Source: a virus
UHGV virus genome: UHGV-0038496
Reading direction: 5' to 3' (one strand)
Length of the DNA: 64,000 bases
The notes beneath the pieces are model-generated. The model searched no databases and was not told the origin of the DNA. It was given only the letters and a program-made list of their open reading frames with translations. The position numbers were made by a program, and so were the translations under genes. The first letter of the stretch is position 1, and the number at the start of each line of letters is the position of its first letter. This document shows positions 19,270-60,398 of this stretch, one piece after another.

Positions 19270-20244
19270 TGTAGAAGTTTCTTGAGTAAATACAACGATC
19301 CTGTAACAGGTGAAGAGAAATATCTCGGTCGTTTCAACTTAGGTGTGGTAAGCCTGAACCTACCTATGATTGCAGCTCGTTCCAAAGCTGAACAGGTAGA
19401 TTTCTTCAAACTGCTTGACGAGTATCTTGAACTGGCGTATGATGCTCATATGGTACGTGTGAACCGTTTGAAAGGCACAAAAGCTGGACAGAACCCGATC
19501 ATGTGGTGTGAAGGTGTTCTGGCTCGTCTTGATCCTAATGAGGAGATTGACAAACTGTTCTACGATGGCTATGCTTCTATAAGCATCGGCTATATTGGTG
19601 TTTATGAAACATGCCAGATCCTTGGCAGAGAAGGCGACAAAAACCTTGCTCTGGGTATCCTCCAGCACATGAAGGATAAATGTGTTGAGTTCAAAGAACG
19701 CAGCAGATTAGGTTTTAGCCTGTACGGCACACCAAGTGAAAATCTCTGCTATAAAGCGGCTACTTGCTTAGACAGGGCGTATCCTGGAGTTCTGGAGCAC
19801 GAAAGGGAATATCTGACTAATTCGTTTCATCAGCCAGTCTGGATCAAGAGCAGTCCTTTCGACAAGTGGGACTATGAAACCGGATTCGCAGCGATCTCCA
19901 ACGGAGGGTTCATAGGTTACGTTGAACTACCTAATTTACGTAACAATCTCGATGCTTTGGAAAAAATTGTTGATTACGGGTACACCCATTTGCCATATTT
20001 CGGCATCAACATGCCTGTTGACCAATGCTTCAAATGTGGCTTCCGTGGGGAATTTTCTGCCACTGCAAAAGGGTTCTGCTGCCCTGAGTGTGGTAACCAT
20101 GACGAAAGTAGCATCAGTGTGATCCGAAGAGTATCAGGCTATCTGTCTGCACCTAATGCTCGCCCATTCAATCGAGGGAAACAATCGGAGGTGTTAGAAA
20201 GGGTTAAACATGTCGGCAACGTAGATTGTTGTAGTATCTGTTAA
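19270..20244 (+). CDS. nrdD: NrdD, exon 3 (glycyl-radical domain)
   Basis: CRSFL ... GRFNLGVVSLNLP ... CFKCGF ... CPECG zinc ribbon and RVSGYL glycyl-radical motif; the three exons total 712 codons. Confidence 0.75.
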   Translation, partial: CRSFLSKYNDPVTGEEKYLGRFNLGVVSLNLPMIAARSKAEQVDFFKLLDEYLELAYDAHMVRVNRLKGTKAGQNPIMWCEGVLARLDPNEEIDKLFYDGYASISIGYIGVYETCQILGREGDKNLALGILQHMKDKCVEFKERSRLGFSLYGTPSENLCYKAATCLDRAYPGVLEHEREYLTNSFHQPVWIKSSPFDKWDYETGFAAISNGGFIGYVELPNLRNNLDALEKIVDYGYTHLPYFGINMPVDQCFKCGFRGEFSATAKGFCCPECGNHDESSISVIRRVSGYLSAPNARPFNRGKQSEVLERVKHVGNVDCCSIC

Positions 20245-35733: not shown

Positions 35734-36016
35734 CGTACCCTAAGACTAAAAACAGGCCCCAGATTTCAAATTTAAGGGGCCTAGACGCAATTCTGACGCA
35801 TTTTTCTCAGGAATGTGAGCAAACGCCTTACCCTAACATAAAAACCCTTCACAGGCCTTCTTATAGCGTTTTAGGAGGTCTGTATACTTTCTCGCCAGCG
35901 GCGAGCTGTCCAAAATTTTTCCCATCTTACCTTCACTGCTCAGAAAATGTACTATTTTCTTCGAGGCTCTGCCGAGATACTGCCAGAAAATGTACTATTT
36001 TCTTCGCGGTTTATGC

Positions 36017-36045
36017 TTGACTCCTTCTCCTGTTTGTGCTATTAT
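36017..36045 (+). promoter_or_regulatory. sigma70-like promoter (TTGACT, 17 bp spacer, TATTAT)
   Basis: TTGACT at 36017-36022, TATTAT at 36040-36045; follows a 23-bp direct repeat CAGAAAATGTACTATTTTCTTCG (two copies). Confidence 0.5.
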
Positions 36046-36070
36046 CAGTTTGCATTTGAAAGGAGGGGCT

Positions 36071-36223
36071 ATGTACAAGCTGATAATCGTTTTACAATCG
36101 GGTGAGCGTATAGAGCTTGGAGATCGCTTCCACACAATTGAAGAAGCAGACAGGGAGGGTTATCGTATCCTGCAAGAATCAAGATATGCAGACTATTTTG
36201 AAGTAGCAAAAGCAATGCAATAG
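36071..36223 (+). CDS. small hypothetical protein (50 aa)
   Basis: ATG with AAAGGAGGGG RBS. Confidence 0.45.
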   Translation: MYKLIIVLQSGERIELGDRFHTIEEADREGYRILQESRYADYFEVAKAMQ

Positions 36224-36232
36224 GAGGAGCGT

Positions 36233-36373
36233 ATGAAATCAAGTGAAGTCACAGACGGAATCATCGTCTATTGTCTGGTTACACTGGCAATCCTGTGTGC
36301 TGTATTGTGTATAGCTGGAGCATATACAATGCTATCTTTGCTACTGGAGTATGTTGCAGGGCTATTGTTCTGA
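36233..36373 (+). CDS. small membrane peptide (46 aa)
   Basis: ATG with AGGAGGAG RBS; hydrophobic. Confidence 0.4.
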   Translation: MKSSEVTDGIIVYCLVTLAILCAVLCIAGAYTMLSLLLEYVAGLLF

Positions 36374-36883
36374 CACGTAACTCCTCTGCCCACACATCCA
36401 CAACAATCGCAAGCTCTGTTGCCTGAAGAGTCAGACAAACTTCAGCGATAAGTGCTTTAGCAAGTAGCTTTTAGCTAATTGTGCTGTTCACACATGCCTA
36501 CCAATTCTGGTAGGTATCTTCCGTATTGCAATTCCTTTCATCTCCTGCTATAATTTAGATCTTCTCTCTCTTTTCCAGAATACGCTTCTGGGTTTCTCTC
36601 TCTTCGGATTGAAGGAGATAGGGGAATATCGACTGAGTGAACAGTGTGAACATCCGAACGAATGGAGTATCGCACGAGCTTGTCGAGGTTGGAGAGCGGG
36701 AGCGGTTATAGCGACCAGCCAACTGCGATGTAATATAGGCAGTAAGGCACAATAACGGTAGAGTTTAAGTACCAGCGTTGTTGGGGAGACTAGAACCGGG
36801 GGTAGGGGGTTAGGCACATATAGATACTTAGCCTGCTAATTATTGCATAACTAAGTGATTATAATGGCTTCCTTGCCTGAAAA

Positions 36884-37594
36884 CTACATTCCATAATCCT
36901 CATCCTGCTTCTGAGCCATTCCATGATAAACTTCCCAGTACTTAGAGGCATACACCATATCCCATTCTTCCTGAGTCACCCATGCAATCATCCCACTGAG
37001 AATGTCTCTCACCTGTTCCCATTCTTCCCTTTGAGCAATAGCCTCTTCCTGTGTTTTGAATGCTTTCGCTATACGTTTTGTAACGGTATGACGAGTGACA
37101 GCAATACTTGCCCTCCAGTAAGTGTACGGGCCATTATGATATTCACTTACCCCACAAATACCAGACTTGTTAGTTTTGTGCATACCACTGTTAGTCATGT
37201 TCTGTAGGCGACTAACCAGTCTGAGATTGTCCAGGTGGTTGTTACCAGGGTCACGATCAATATGGTCAATCTCCATACCTTCCGGGATTGGACCATGATG
37301 CATCACCCAGATAATCCTTGCACCCTGGAGCAGAGTCTGTTTCCCGTCCACCAGCCAGCCTACAACATAGCGACCATCTTTAGCTGCATAGCTACCAGCA
37401 ACAGCCCCCTTCTTCGCATTAGAAGAACGAGTAAATTTATTCCTCAACACACCAAACTCAGCATCATAAACGAAATAGATGCTCCAGTCTGTAGTGTTAT
37501 ACACCTCCTCAAATTTCACCACAACTGTTTTGTTGTGATTGTTCTTCACAGCGTTATCATAATACGCCTGGGCATCAGCCTTGAACTCAAACAT
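36884..37594 (-). CDS. HNH homing endonuclease with AP2-like domain
   Basis: IDHIDRDPGNNHLDNLRLVSRLQN HNH motif; GICGVSEYHNGPYTYWRA AP2-like. Confidence 0.7.
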   Translation of the reverse strand: MFEFKADAQAYYDNAVKNNHNKTVVVKFEEVYNTTDWSIYFVYDAEFGVLRNKFTRSSNAKKGAVAGSYAAKDGRYVVGWLVDGKQTLLQGARIIWVMHHGPIPEGMEIDHIDRDPGNNHLDNLRLVSRLQNMTNSGMHKTNKSGICGVSEYHNGPYTYWRASIAVTRHTVTKRIAKAFKTQEEAIAQREEWEQVRDILSGMIAWVTQEEWDMVYASKYWEVYHGMAQKQDEDYGM

Positions 37595-55580: not shown

Positions 55581-56012
55581 TTACTGCCGACGGCTTCTTA
55601 ACACTTCCCTTTCTCTTTCCACAATCTCGAAGAACTCTTCCCAGTCATTAGGGAAGTTAGTCTCACCGAAATGGGTTTCAAAGTAGATAGTCTCACCTGA
55701 AGGTAAGTGGATATCGCAAACGCAATAATCACCGCAGTCCTCGCATTCTCCTTCAGCGAACTCTACATCTTTAGGTTTGATGATACCTGCAACACCTAAC
55801 AGCATTTCTACTTCTTCGAAGTACATCTCCCCGTTTTCATCGAAGTAGACGTTATAATCGTAGCCGTCCCATTCAATAGAGTATTCTTTAAAACGTTCAC
55901 CGTTGAACACGTAGCTATCGATTTTACCAGTGACAAGGATACCTGCAATCATTACCTGAAAGCGAGAATCGTTGTCATATACAGGAATCAGTTTAGGTAC
56001 AGGGTAGATCAT
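55581..56012 (-). CDS. hypothetical acidic Cys-cluster protein
   Basis: CEDCGDYCVCD. Confidence 0.4.
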   Translation of the reverse strand: MIYPVPKLIPVYDNDSRFQVMIAGILVTGKIDSYVFNGERFKEYSIEWDGYDYNVYFDENGEMYFEEVEMLLGVAGIIKPKDVEFAEGECEDCGDYCVCDIHLPSGETIYFETHFGETNFPNDWEEFFEIVEREREVLRSRRQ

Positions 56013-56203
56013 TTTTCAGGCACCTCACGTCCTACATATTTTAAGAAACTGCACAAACCACCCAGCATAATAGCTGAATATGAAGCACGTACCCATGCAG
56101 GGAAGTCTGCATAATGTGCAGCGCTAATAGCTACAAAACCTACTGCCGCAAACATACCGATAAGAAGCAGGACAGTAAATAAGATTTTCTGTAACTCACT
56201 CAT
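56009..56203 (-). CDS. small membrane protein
   Basis: Two hydrophobic helices. Confidence 0.4.
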   Translation of the reverse strand: MSELQKILFTVLLLIGMFAAVGFVAISAAHYADFPAWVRASYSAIMLGGLCSFLKYVGREVPEK

Positions 56204-56214
56204 TGTACGTACTC

Positions 56215-56373
56215 CTAGTGAAAAATGATTCCAGCTTCATACATAGAGCTGATGATAATAAACAGCAGAATCAGCGTAATGAAGAACACTTTGTTAGCTG
56301 TTGACAGCTTCATAAGGCTGATAAGAAACACAACCAAAAGGCAAAGTGTTACAGCTATACCTAAGACTTCCAT
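56215..56373 (-). CDS. small membrane peptide (52 aa)
   Basis: Below ORF-track cutoff; GAGGAGG RBS. Confidence 0.4.
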   Translation of the reverse strand: MEVLGIAVTLCLLVVFLISLMKLSTANKVFFITLILLFIIISSMYEAGIIFH

Positions 56374-56394
56374 CGGAGAACCTCCTCGATCATT

Positions 56395-56613
56395 TTAACT
56401 CTGGTAGCAAAGTGCATCTTCCCAGTCTACAAAATCGTTGCAAGCTGCATCAAATGCACGTTCACCATGCACACCAGAGTAATAAACAGGGTCCTCTACA
56501 ATATTGGCAAAGCGACTGTGAATTTCAATAAGACGCAAGTCCGATGCCATTTGCTGAGGGTAATTCGTTGTGATCATATGACACATATGTGCTGCATGTT
56601 CTTGAATATTCAT
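56395..56613 (-). CDS. hypothetical protein
   Basis: ORF in minus-strand array. Confidence 0.4.
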   Translation of the reverse strand: MNIQEHAAHMCHMITTNYPQQMASDLRLIEIHSRFANIVEDPVYYSGVHGERAFDAACNDFVDWEDALCYQS

Positions 56614-56624
56614 TTTTCGTCCCC

Positions 56625-56852
56625 TCAGTAAGAATAATAACCTGGTATAGAATCGAAAGCTGGCTCGACTTCAAACAAACCTTGCGCTATACCATCTGCA
56701 ATGTAGAGTTCCTCTTCAAGTTCCTCTTCATTGTAGAGGCAAGCATTGTACTTGATATCAGTACAACCCTCCATCGGAGCAAGCAAATACCAGCCTGCCC
56801 ATTCAGCCCACGGACCCTGAACATCCGCTGCTACTCTAATACGATACAGCAT
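56625..56852 (-). CDS. hypothetical protein
   Basis: ORF in minus-strand array. Confidence 0.4.
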   Translation of the reverse strand: MLYRIRVAADVQGPWAEWAGWYLLAPMEGCTDIKYNACLYNEEELEEELYIADGIAQGLFEVEPAFDSIPGYYSY

Positions 56853-56944
56853 AGTGTGTGCTCCTTCTCTTTTGTATGGGATGTACTGTACCAGATTCCA
56901 CGCCTGTTGTCAATCAGTTTTTAACTGGTGTGGGGATCAAATAC

Positions 56945-57136
56945 TTACTTGTTGTTAAGGAGTTCCAAAACTTTCTGTTTTACTTCATCAAGGTTTGTTG
57001 ATTCAAAAACTGTGCGATATTCCCAACTTTGCCCATAGGAATAACTGCAATCCCCGTAACACCATTGCTCGACTTGATAGTATTCAAGGAATTGGTGCTG
57101 TCGGACTATGATACCATCTCGATTAAAAATTACCAT
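56945..57136 (-). CDS. hypothetical protein
   Basis: Small ORF. Confidence 0.35.
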   Translation of the reverse strand: MVIFNRDGIIVRQHQFLEYYQVEQWCYGDCSYSYGQSWEYRTVFESTNLDEVKQKVLELLNNK

Positions 57137-57192
57137 AATGCGTCACTCTCTGTTGGTTTATGTGCTGTATTATACACCATAGTTTCCTGGTG

Positions 57193-57654
57193 TCAACCCT
57201 TTTTGCAGTACTCCACTACGATCACTCTTATATCAGGAGTCGTGAGGTTGATGATATTCTCTACATGCTCCCACATAAGACCTCCTATACCGCACCCAAT
57301 CTTAGGGATGTAGAACGGTAACGACATACCTTCGAATACCTCATTGACTTGCTCAAAACCTTTCATGATTGAAGAGTAATCAGCATTAGGTCCCGGTCGG
57401 AATTGAGTATACATATTAATACCGTATACAATCCTGTTCTTGGCAAAATGCTCCCAACAAGAGAGTGTGCCCAGCTTGTCTGGATCACCATAAGCAGTCA
57501 TTTTGTCAGTTTCCAACGCTTGAGGAAACTCCCTGACAATTTGTCTTGCTATACCTGCACCCATTGTGTGGAAGCAGTTGCAACCGTGGATTAGATGACC
57601 AGCCCCGCTCTTAAAGATAGAGATTAAATCTCCATTTACAGTACCGATAATCAT
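57193..57654 (-). CDS. macro-domain-like protein (putative ADP-ribose binding/hydrolase)
   Basis: GDLISIFKSGAGHLIHGCNCFHTMGAGIARQI and IPKIGCGIGGL resemble macro-domain glycine-rich motifs. Confidence 0.5.
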   Translation of the reverse strand: MIIGTVNGDLISIFKSGAGHLIHGCNCFHTMGAGIARQIVREFPQALETDKMTAYGDPDKLGTLSCWEHFAKNRIVYGINMYTQFRPGPNADYSSIMKGFEQVNEVFEGMSLPFYIPKIGCGIGGLMWEHVENIINLTTPDIRVIVVEYCKKG

Positions 57655-57666
57655 AGTGCCCCTCTT

Positions 57667-58122
57667 TTAGCGATCTCCGTACTCTGCTGCGTGTTTGTGC
57701 AGGTAGTCTAACACAACCTTTAACTCGTTTTCAAGGTCTTTTAAAAACTCGATAGAAGTAAAATGATTGATGCGGTAGCAATCAGAGATACAAAACTCTG
57801 GATAGCAAGCCCCTTCCATCCCGACATGCCAGCAACAACGAGCCAGCATCTTGAATGCTTCCTCGCTCCAATCCAGGTCAACTTTACCACAACTTTTCTC
57901 ACCGTTGTCAACTGCTCTCAGAAACTCACACAGGCAGTTTTGCAGTGTCTCGACCTTCATCAGGAAGTGTTCAAAATGGTCGTTGTGCAAACGAACAACA
58001 CGCTCCGCTTTTTTGATGCACAGTTCGAACACGCAAGGCAGCTTTTTGTTCAGTTCTATGTGGTAGCTGATTGCGTAGTAGTCATCACCGTACCATTTGC
58101 CACCGTCACTGCCGAAAATCAT
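57667..58122 (-). CDS. hypothetical Cys-rich protein
   Basis: ORF overlapping downstream stop. Confidence 0.4.
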   Translation of the reverse strand: MIFGSDGGKWYGDDYYAISYHIELNKKLPCVFELCIKKAERVVRLHNDHFEHFLMKVETLQNCLCEFLRAVDNGEKSCGKVDLDWSEEAFKMLARCCWHVGMEGACYPEFCISDCYRINHFTSIEFLKDLENELKVVLDYLHKHAAEYGDR

Positions 58123-58556
58123 AATGCACCCCCATAAACGTCATGAGTTTTGCAATACTGGATTGCTTTAAGGATATTGCAAAGTTCTTTGTGCAGCAAT
58201 TTTATTTGATTCATCTGGTAAGGAGAAAAATACAGCCGTTTCTGACAATCAGCTAAAGTGAAAGTATCATCGCTACGATCACCATCATCGCAGACCTCGA
58301 AAGTGCAATTCCCGTGCATGTGGCCTTTGGCGTGAGAGTTGTCTAACCAGACGCGATCACTGCATTTAATGTTGTTATCTAAAGCAAACATCCAGCGCTC
58401 AATCATATCGCGGATAAGATCGTATTTGGCATACATTTCGTCAGGAGTTACGTCACCATCCCCTGGTGGATAGTGATTCTCGTAGTGTAAATCTGGACAG
58501 ACAGTGTAGCATAAGTCTCTTGCTTGTCCTGATAACCAGTGAACTTCTCTACACAC
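58119..58556 (-). CDS. hypothetical protein (possibly frameshifted continuation of a short upstream ORF)
   Basis: GTG start without good RBS; a 57-codon ORF with good RBS starts at 58623 in another frame. Confidence 0.35.
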   Translation of the reverse strand: MCREVHWLSGQARDLCYTVCPDLHYENHYPPGDGDVTPDEMYAKYDLIRDMIERWMFALDNNIKCSDRVWLDNSHAKGHMHGNCTFEVCDDGDRSDDTFTLADCQKRLYFSPYQMNQIKLLHKELCNILKAIQYCKTHDVYGGAL

Positions 58557-58711
58557 CAGTCAATACCAAAAAGTTCTCTGTCAACAAGACCGCCAAATTC
58601 GTGTTTCAGACAAAGTGCCATGATGTGTATCTCCGAAAATAAAAAAGGCTAACAATTTCTGTTAGCCTTTAATGTACTCTTTTTTGTTGGTGTTGTCAAG
58701 TGGTAAAACTG

Positions 58712-58957
58712 TTAATTTTTTCCCTTCAACCCAACACAGATTCTTGACGGCTCTTTACCGTACCACATCAGGTAAAGTCCGTTAATGCGACCCTGTTTCG
58801 TATATGATTCTTTCCTGAGCTTCTTGTAGTACCGCGTTTCCATAACTGACATTTTAGAATACCTGTCATAAAGGAAGAGGTACAAAGGCCAGCCCTTAGC
58901 GTCCTTAATACACTTACTTAAAAATGCCTTGTTGCGCTTAATTAGTTTTCTTTTCAT
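58712..58957 (-). CDS. hypothetical basic protein
   Basis: Lys/Arg-rich. Confidence 0.4.
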   Translation of the reverse strand: MKRKLIKRNKAFLSKCIKDAKGWPLYLFLYDRYSKMSVMETRYYKKLRKESYTKQGRINGLYLMWYGKEPSRICVGLKGKN

Positions 58958-58977
58958 GAACTTAATACCTTAGCTTA

Positions 58978-59448
58978 TTAGTTGAACACTTTAGTGGCTA
59001 TGTAAAAATCTGGGCCATGAACTTTTGGAGGCTCACTGATACAAAGTATAGCTGAACCTACCTTAATGTAGTAGAACAGACTAAACTCACCTTTGAACTT
59101 ACGCCACTGTGCAACACAAGTTTGCTCATAACGATCAAGAATCTTGAAATAATCATCCAGACAAGCATCTTCTGGGATAATTATTGTAGGCATAAACTTG
59201 TTGTGACCGCAGCAACAGTTCATAGTCTGCAAACCTGCTGCCCACAGACTGACCAGCCGTTTAGCCATACACTTATCAACTGCGATAGTGCGTTGTTCAG
59301 TACCATCCATCCGTTTTGTACGAAGACGTTTAGGAACTTCCAGAATAACATTAGGGTGCTTAGCACCCTTCACTTTCTTGTTGTAAGATTTGCATTTACA
59401 CATGTGGTGTACCTCTGCTTTGTGGGAAGGCATCAGGCTAAAGCCCAT
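58978..59448 (-). CDS. hypothetical Cys/His-rich protein
   Basis: HHMCKCK ... CCCGHNK. Confidence 0.4.
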   Translation of the reverse strand: MGFSLMPSHKAEVHHMCKCKSYNKKVKGAKHPNVILEVPKRLRTKRMDGTEQRTIAVDKCMAKRLVSLWAAGLQTMNCCCGHNKFMPTIIIPEDACLDDYFKILDRYEQTCVAQWRKFKGEFSLFYYIKVGSAILCISEPPKVHGPDFYIATKVFN

Positions 59449-60071
59449 TCAAGGTGCTCTTTCATTTTGTCACCCCAACCGTTGACAACAGCGTCAACAC
59501 GCGTCCAATCCGTGCAACTCTGATCGTAAGGAGTATCCATCAGAATAGTGCTTCCGGTGTGAGAATCTTTCCGAGAAGGAAATGCTTCTATGCGGTCATC
59601 GATGAGCACGTCCCACTCAAAATTTATCTTCTCCTGCATGTCTTTCACACGGATCAGTTCATTCTCGTGCCTGTCCCCGTGGCCTCCCCATTTTATCTCC
59701 AGAAAAGGACACCATCTGTTGATGAAATCAAATTTATTGACATGCTGTTTGTGGCTTAAAGACCCAGTTAAAAACCAGATGATGGCTCCTTCGTCATGTA
59801 GCCACTTAATAGTGTCAACAGCACCAGGCAACGGCTCAAGGTTGTCATAGATGCCGCCTAACTTCCAGAAAAGCCTTAAGTCTCTCTTGTAGCATTCAGG
59901 AAAGTATTTTGTTAGGTCGTAGTAGAAACGCATCTGTGGATTCTGTGGCGGCAGAAAGACGTTAATGGGCAGACCAGTCCTTTTCTGACACCAGTCTAAC
60001 CATGCACGACCAGAATCAACAAAAGTAAGGTCCACATCTACAGCCACCACCTTGCCAATAAACTTTTTCAT
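59433..60071 (-). CDS. HAD-superfamily phosphatase (5'-nucleotidase-like), paralog of 14700-15302
   Basis: VDVDLTF motif I, YDLTKYFPE, VLIDDR; ATG at 60071 with GAGAGG RBS. Confidence 0.5.
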   Translation of the reverse strand: MKKFIGKVVAVDVDLTFVDSGRAWLDWCQKRTGLPINVFLPPQNPQMRFYYDLTKYFPECYKRDLRLFWKLGGIYDNLEPLPGAVDTIKWLHDEGAIIWFLTGSLSHKQHVNKFDFINRWCPFLEIKWGGHGDRHENELIRVKDMQEKINFEWDVLIDDRIEAFPSRKDSHTGSTILMDTPYDQSCTDWTRVDAVVNGWGDKMKEHLEWALA

Positions 60072-60081
60072 GGAATACCTC

Positions 60082-60336
60082 TCACAAACGTTCCAAACGG
60101 AACATGATTTTGAAAGCATAATCACGAACAGTTATGCCTAAACTTTCTAACCTGCAAAGTGTGTACTCAGAAATTTTAATGCTGATATTGTTTTTCATCA
60201 CTTCCCGCTGCCCATTGACCATATCAGTCAGTGCTTCACGGATAGCTTGGTAAGTCCGTGCAAAACGATAACCCCGATCAAGAGCTTCTTCCACTGTCAA
60301 CTGTTTGCGTGCTTTGATAATATCTTGTTTAATCAT
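60082..60336 (-). CDS. hypothetical protein
   Basis: ATG at 60336. Confidence 0.4.
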   Translation of the reverse strand: MIKQDIIKARKQLTVEEALDRGYRFARTYQAIREALTDMVNGQREVMKNNISIKISEYTLCRLESLGITVRDYAFKIMFRLERL

Positions 60337-60398
60337 GATGGTAGTCCTTATCTTTCTCTTAGTGGTCGCATTATATCCTAAAATTTTTCTCTTGTCAA

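Follow-up and report, generated by a model that had tools for sequence, protein, structure and literature searches.

A putative anti-DarTG2 macrodomain protein of the Tk.4/AdfM family in the small-gene block of a Vequintavirinae-like phage

A macrodomain gene in a block of small minus-strand genes

In the window (the whole 64-kb stretch of DNA analysed, which is part of the phage genome), an ATG-initiated ORF of 153 aa was found at 57193..57654 on the minus strand, with its stop codon within these coordinates. Its description as the CDS of a single-domain macrodomain protein homologous to T4 Tk.4/AdfM draws on the ORF itself, Pfam, PHROG, AlphaFold2 (AF2) and Foldseek results, invariant alignment columns and dN/dS. 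The first-pass annotation had placed a macro-domain-like protein at exactly these coordinates, with the strand not given, on the basis of glycine-rich motifs, every one of which is present in the translation: SGAGH (aa 16-20), IHGCNC (22-27), MGAGIA (31-36) and IGCGIGG (119-125). The key residues are H23, N26, the G32-A33-G34 loop, N80, Q84 and the G120-C-G122-I-G-G125 loop. A Shine-Dalgarno-like sequence, AAGAGGGG (57659..57666, minus), was read 4 nt 5' of the macro ATG, right behind the TAA of the upstream gene (57669-57667).

Two Cys-rich ORFs lie upstream on the same strand, one of 145 aa (58119-58556) and one of 151 aa (57667-58122), which overlap each other by 4 nt and are separated from the macro gene by 12 nt. 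Neither had a Pfam or PHROG match, and no tblastn match was found for the 151-aa ORF in 50,697 phage records. The possibility that the two are paralogs was not supported, as BLASTP revealed no detectable similarity between them (E = 0.2). In a metagenomic relative (L003), whose macro protein is 84% identical, the genes are arranged alike, the macro gene following ORFs of 167 aa and then 151 aa. The two Cys-rich ORFs are probably on one transcript with the macro gene, and they may have a functional connection with the macrodomain or be orphans unrelated to it.

Ten neighbouring ORFs match either no family or a PHROG without assigned function. The one neighbour with an annotation, located 1.8 kb from the macro gene on its upstream side, encodes an NT5C-like nucleotidase (59433-60125, minus; Pfam E = 9.5e-8); a second NT5C-like (5'-deoxynucleotidase) ORF was found elsewhere in the window in the bulk scan (E = 2.2e-6). 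In this Pfam bulk scan, which covered the ORFs of at least 100 aa (69 in the window), ART, NADAR/AdfN, sirtuin, Tpt1 and DarT were all absent from the families listed (25 of the 26 matched).

A perfect sigma-70 consensus (TTGACA-16-TATAAT, 12/12) was found at 57169..57196 on the minus strand, with the stop codon (TGA) of the macro gene falling within its -35 hexamer, and is likely the promoter of the next small gene (57136-56945). Upstream, the consensus scan gave a promoter-like site at 58699-58671 (10/12, minus) overlapping a terminator-like hairpin at 58670-58644. The segment 58644..58699 is a possible, weak candidate for the boundary and start of a three-gene unit ending with the macro gene, weak because such sites are no more numerous than expected from shuffling. 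Another perfect 12/12 consensus (TTGACA and TATAAT, the spacers of the two perfect sites being 16 or 17 nt) is located at 60370-60398 (minus), directly behind a strong terminator-like hairpin at 60425-60404. The arrangement fits an early, host-polymerase-transcribed minus-strand region punctuated by sigma-70 sites and hairpins. Despite these single perfect sites, however, overall site counts in the promoter/terminator scan did not exceed those of shuffled sequences, so we infer, rather than observe, the operon and the early, host-polymerase transcription of this block.

The window also showed several features away from this locus. The coding strand switches at ~36000-36500, from plus (~1-36000, with DNA ligase, NrdD/NrdG-like, PhoH and ClpP-like genes) to minus (~36500-64000, with the small-gene block). 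The anaerobic ribonucleotide reductase gene nrdD is apparently split over 16363-20244 (plus): three ORFs match Pfam NRDD, the C-terminal piece (19192-20244) extends over profile positions 263-562 and also includes the glycyl-radical domain, and an HNH_3 endonuclease ORF (17069-17689) sits among the pieces, which suggests that a homing endonuclease, intron or intein has interrupted the gene. HNH_3 homing-endonuclease domains were detected in six ORFs of at least 100 aa, including those at 9581-10315 (plus), 17069-17689 (plus) and 36884-37594 (minus), which is dense for 64 kb. A tRNA scan of the whole window found none.

The protein is a member of the macro domain superfamily

The 153-aa protein matched Pfam PF01661 (Macro) over the entire profile (positions 1-118 of 118) with 25.7 bits and E = 1.2e-5. 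This score is above the gathering cut-off of 22, indicating that the match to the macro motifs did not arise by chance. It also matched PHROG 335 with E = 1.3e-59. Searched as a single sequence against PDB sequences, the protein hit Poa1p, DarG macrodomains, BT1257, SCO6735 and TARG1/OARD1. A family profile was then built from an alignment of 74 sequences (A1), which also served as the basis of the AlphaFold2 model. This profile retrieved from the PDB BT1257 (1.7e-16), SCO6735 (1.1e-15), TARG1 (5.6e-13), Mycobacterium tuberculosis (Mtb) DarG (1.2e-12) and Poa1p (2e-12).

The AlphaFold2 model was confident (pLDDT 91.7, pTM 0.88). In a Foldseek search against the PDB, the model was most similar to TARG1 (E = 1.9e-9, TM 0.77), followed by Poa1p, the Thermus aquaticus and M. 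tuberculosis DarG macrodomains, BT1257 and SCO6735. There were 179 PDB matches at E <= 1e-3, and those listed were all macrodomains or engineered hydrolases (OSH55 series). Both the model and its Foldseek matches display the three-layer alpha/beta/alpha macro fold, which supports a predicted fold of the TARG1/DarG/SCO6735 class. Furthermore, G32-A-G34 and G120-C-G122-I-G-G125 align with the diphosphate-binding loops of TARG1, DarG and SCO6735, and G32, G34, P117 and G120 are invariant in the alignment with solved relatives (A3).

Together, the profile matches, the fold and the glycine loops show that the protein is a member of the macro domain superfamily. The fold proposed in the first-pass annotation was therefore borne out by Pfam Macro, PHROG 335, the family profile, the AF2 model and Foldseek alike, the search against macro-domain HMM profiles being positive above its cut-off. 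We are almost certain that the gene encodes some type of macrodomain ADP-ribose hydrolase.

A homolog of T4 Tk.4 under purifying selection

BLASTP aligned the protein with T4 Tk.4 over its full length, with 39% identity over 152 aa and E = 1e-44. Both are single-domain proteins of ~153-155 aa assigned to PHROG 335, and they have in common the motifs HGCNCFHTMG-G, N-x-YTQF-PGPN and P-IG-GIG. Each gene sits among small non-structural genes, but the T4 gene lies between vs and tk, whereas the gene studied here follows two orphan genes in a small-gene block of the Vequintavirinae-like kind. By homology, we assign the protein to the Tk.4/AdfM family (PHROG 335). A tblastn search found homologs in 2739 phage records, T4 Tk.4 included, spread over T4-like, rV5-like, Felix-O1-like, Pseudomonas, Vibrio, Acinetobacter and other phages, and several GenBank records of close relatives already label the gene 'macro domain protein'.

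In T4, tk.4 was the single hit of a transposon screen (HIDEN-SEQ) conditionally required on a DarTG2-expressing host, and a clean tk.4 knockout was sensitised to DarTG2, as reported in a 2025 preprint (bioRxiv 10.1101/2025.11.20.689424). The gene was renamed adfM (anti-DarT factor Macrodomain), and enzymatic removal of ADP-ribose from DNA was proposed by the authors as its function (bioRxiv 10.1101/2025.11.20.689424). The phenotype, which is genetic, has been reported for the T4 protein only.

The macro gene is under purifying selection, dN/dS being 0.14 in the comparison with its Vequintavirus A51.2 counterpart and 0.11 in that with a metagenomic relative. The small-gene block is syntenic with that of Vequintavirus A51.2 at the protein level. 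Within it, the macro protein is 79% identical to its A51.2 counterpart, compared to 38-65% for most neighbours. A 63-aa ORF at 56945-57136 (minus; PHROG 6957, function unassigned) is 87% identical to its A51.2 counterpart and is the only protein of the block to exceed the macrodomain in this comparison. The macro gene thus ranks second for conservation in a fast-evolving, probably early block of small genes. At the nucleotide level, megablast of 56000-59500 showed that the macro gene alone matches known phages (~80% identity), and only 4% of a 20-kb stretch elsewhere in the window was matched; the phage is only distant kin of known Vequintavirinae (rV5-like) at this level. Given the protein-level synteny of the block with Vequintavirus, we take the lone megablast match to reflect tighter constraint on the macro gene rather than to prove a recent transfer.

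A glutamine-type active site shared with SCO6735

The active site was compared using the alignment with solved relatives together with HMMER alignments. Two types of macrodomain were distinguished. In the Lys type, represented by DarG (FPTKK), PhiKZ gp104 (FPTKD) and TARG1 (ITKK), the catalytic lysine corresponds to DarG K80 and TARG1 K84. In the Gln type, this position is held by glutamine, Q84 in the protein studied here, and the type also comprises Vequintavirus A51.2, T4 Tk.4, BT1257 and SCO6735, with an H-x-C-N first loop common to all. Twelve columns are invariant in the 74 homologs: H23, G24, N26, C27, G34, A36, N80, Y82, Q84, P117, G120 and G122. The family thus displays a single-domain architecture of ~150 aa with an invariant H-G-C-N...N-x-Y-T-Q...P-x-I-G-x-G core. 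Human TARG1/OARD1 (4J5S), although the best structural match, differs in its Lys84/Asp125 dyad, the equivalents of which are Q84 and G124.

SCO6735 from Streptomyces coelicolor (5E3B) and BT1257 from Bacteroides (2FG1/2AFC) were the PDB sequences that the family profile matched best (1e-15 to 1e-16). Both resemble the phage protein in their H-x-C-N first loop, their Gln at the catalytic position and their GCG-x-GG loop, are ALC1/TARG1-like, and stand alone with no DarT partner. They differ in being cellular rather than viral and only ~22% identical to the phage protein. SCO6735 removes ADP-ribose linked to thymidine in DNA, at high turnover, and gives protection from DarT toxicity (PMC9411070). 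H23, N26 and Q84 align with its H24, N27 and Q85, and the SCO6735 Q85A mutant is inactive and the N27S mutant almost inactive (PMC9411070). A mechanism independent of lysine has been proposed for SCO6735, in which the protein backbone and an activated water take part (PMC9411070). Given the shared Gln-type active site, the phage protein most likely works like SCO6735.

One difference from SCO6735 lies in the loop after the Gln. SCO6735 has an extended mobile loop bearing Lys89 and Lys94, which has been proposed as the reason for its high processivity on DNA. After Q84-F85, this loop is 5 residues shorter in the phage protein than in SCO6735 and BT1257, and the Lys89/Lys94 pair is missing.

The protein is not a DarG and appears distinct from the PhiKZ-type AdfM

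DarG, the DarTG2 antitoxin (5M31/5M3E/5M3I), was the sole PADLOC and NCBIfam match of the protein, and the match is restricted to the macro part. It aligned with positions 4-138 of 338 of the NCBIfam profile NF048014 (antitoxin_DarG), scoring 46.6 bits against an equivalog cut-off of 250, and with positions 9-140 of 329 of the PADLOC DarG model; the C-terminal DarT-binding domain is absent. In addition, Q84 replaces the catalytic Lys80 of Mtb DarG ('FPTKK'), and no darT gene is adjacent: neither flanking gene had a Pfam match, and no DarT/ART family was among those listed for the window. The two proteins are alike in fold (Foldseek E ~1e-7 to 1e-8, TM ~0.74) and in their predicted substrate, but the phage protein has no DarT-binding domain, no catalytic Lys and no darT neighbour, and is not a DarG. 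A phage-borne DarTG-like toxin-antitoxin pair was likewise rejected, as neither Pfam nor PHROG gives the flanking genes a function.

PhiKZ gp104, the 'AdfM' of a chimallivirus, removes DarT2-added ADP-ribose from DNA in vitro and in vivo and is needed on DarTG2 hosts (PMC13309987). It is imported into the phage nucleus, and an N23A mutant shows the importance of this Asn (PMC13309987), which is equivalent to N26. Both proteins are orphan macrodomains of phages. However, gp104 is only ~22% identical in the multiple alignment, is of the Lys type (FPTKDNW), has V-N-V in the first loop compared with H-G-C-N, and carries an insertion ahead of the Gly loop. Judging from these alignments, PhiKZ gp104 looks like a separate lineage from the Tk.4-type AdfM, bearing the same name by chance.

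Proposed function and alternatives

Our best explanation, which we consider probable on the strength of homology, is that the protein is an orphan antitoxin-like DNA ADP-ribosyl glycohydrolase countering DarT2. The gene would probably be expressed from an early, host-polymerase-driven small-gene block. When host DarT2-type toxins put ADP-ribose on thymidine of single-stranded phage DNA, the protein would bind the ADP-ribose and hydrolyse the base-ribose bond, restoring replicable DNA and releasing free ADP-ribose. In the predicted active site, H23 and N26 would sit on the first loop, with Q84 at the position of DarG K80/TARG1 K84 and residues 119-125 as the diphosphate loop. With a Gln-type site as in SCO6735 and BT1257, lysine-independent catalysis is expected, which would proceed through substrate positioning and an activated water and not through a lysine Schiff base. 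The proposal agrees with the published function of the homologs, and the suggestion in the first-pass annotation that the protein counters DarTG-type defence thus gained support from homology, the DarTG2-sensitive T4 knockout affecting a protein of the same family. We count against it that the identity to the T4 protein is only 39% and that the mobile loop is shorter than that of SCO6735. While the ORF, its macro fold, its homology to Tk.4 and SCO6735, the conservation of its active-site residues and the selection on it are observed, we infer its substrate (T-ADPr DNA), its anti-DarTG2 role in this phage and its early expression.

An enzyme of broad specificity, or one acting mainly on RNA (e.g. 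uracil-linked) or protein Glu/Asp ADP-ribose with DNA as a side substrate or no substrate, appears unlikely but is the strongest of the alternatives. It would erase modifications made by toxins of the host or by ADP-ribosyltransferases of the phage itself; T4, which carries an ortholog, also encodes the ADP-ribosyltransferases Alt, ModA and ModB. TARG1, which heads the structural matches, also hydrolyses T-ADPr and U-ADPr (PMC13036486). SCO6735, the closest characterised enzyme, hydrolyses PARP1 Glu/Asp-linked protein ADPr (PMC9411070) and removes U-ADPr from ssRNA (PMC13036486). TARG1-class macrodomains are thus promiscuous, so the physiological substrate of the phage protein could differ from thymidine-linked ADP-ribose. 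However, DarTG2 sensitivity is the only reported phenotype of tk.4 loss in T4 (bioRxiv 10.1101/2025.11.20.689424), and neither ART nor NADAR was among the Pfam families listed for those ORFs in the window, itself part of the genome, that reach 100 aa. Moreover, the spread of homologs over many phage groups suggests that the function is not tied to T4-type Alt/Mod enzymes. A related and similarly improbable idea extends to the whole Tk.4/AdfM family, which could be a lysine-independent, SCO6735-like phage eraser of wider reach than DarG (thymine-DNA, uracil-RNA and proteins), protecting against several ADP-ribosylating toxins, here perhaps with the two Cys-rich orphans at 57667-58556.

It is considerably less probable that the protein is a small-molecule enzyme of the Poa1p/YmdB type, i.e. 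an ADP-ribose-1''-phosphate phosphatase or O-acetyl-ADP-ribose deacetylase acting on NAD-derived metabolites or defence signals. Yeast Poa1p was the best single-sequence PDB match (E = 1.3e-5) and shares an (L)IH-x-CNC motif, but this match is confined to two short stretches (aa 7-48 and 115-143), and Poa1p fell behind BT1257, SCO6735, TARG1 and DarG once the family profile was used, with BT1257 and SCO6735 ahead by four orders of magnitude. Database labels also point this way, PHROG 335 being named 'phosphatase' and the JGI homologs 'O-acetyl-ADP-ribose deacetylase', but these are generic transfers and not tests. Furthermore, there is no evident Tpt1-type source of Appr1p, neither sirtuin nor Tpt1 being among the Pfam families listed for the window, and the T4 phenotype points to DarTG2. 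The processing of NAD-derived signals, the other idea of the first-pass annotation, found no support.

Least probable, and very improbable indeed, is that the protein binds ADP-ribose without catalysis or inhibits DarT stoichiometrically, as a sponge or decoy: the canonical catalytic Lys is replaced by Gln, and catalytically dead SCO6735 still inhibits DarT through interaction (PMC9411070), but this Gln is essential for catalysis in SCO6735, the set of H, N, Q and Gly-loop residues is complete and invariant in the 74 homologs, and DarG's DarT-binding C-terminal domain is missing.

Significance

Read as a DNA ADP-ribosyl glycohydrolase countering DarT2, the gene product acquires a well-supported functional label, that of a likely anti-DarTG2 DNA de-ADP-ribosylase. 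The probably early block around the gene otherwise lacks annotation, and the Vequintavirinae-like phage that carries it is poorly sampled. The gene belongs to a known and very common phage family, and its annotation is sound but ordinary, with nothing that would surprise a specialist. The point to carry forward concerns the family: the very widespread Tk.4/AdfM proteins have the Gln-type site of SCO6735, which separates Tk.4-type AdfM from the Lys type of DarG and the PhiKZ 'AdfM', so that one name appears to cover two mechanistically different lineages of phage macrodomains.
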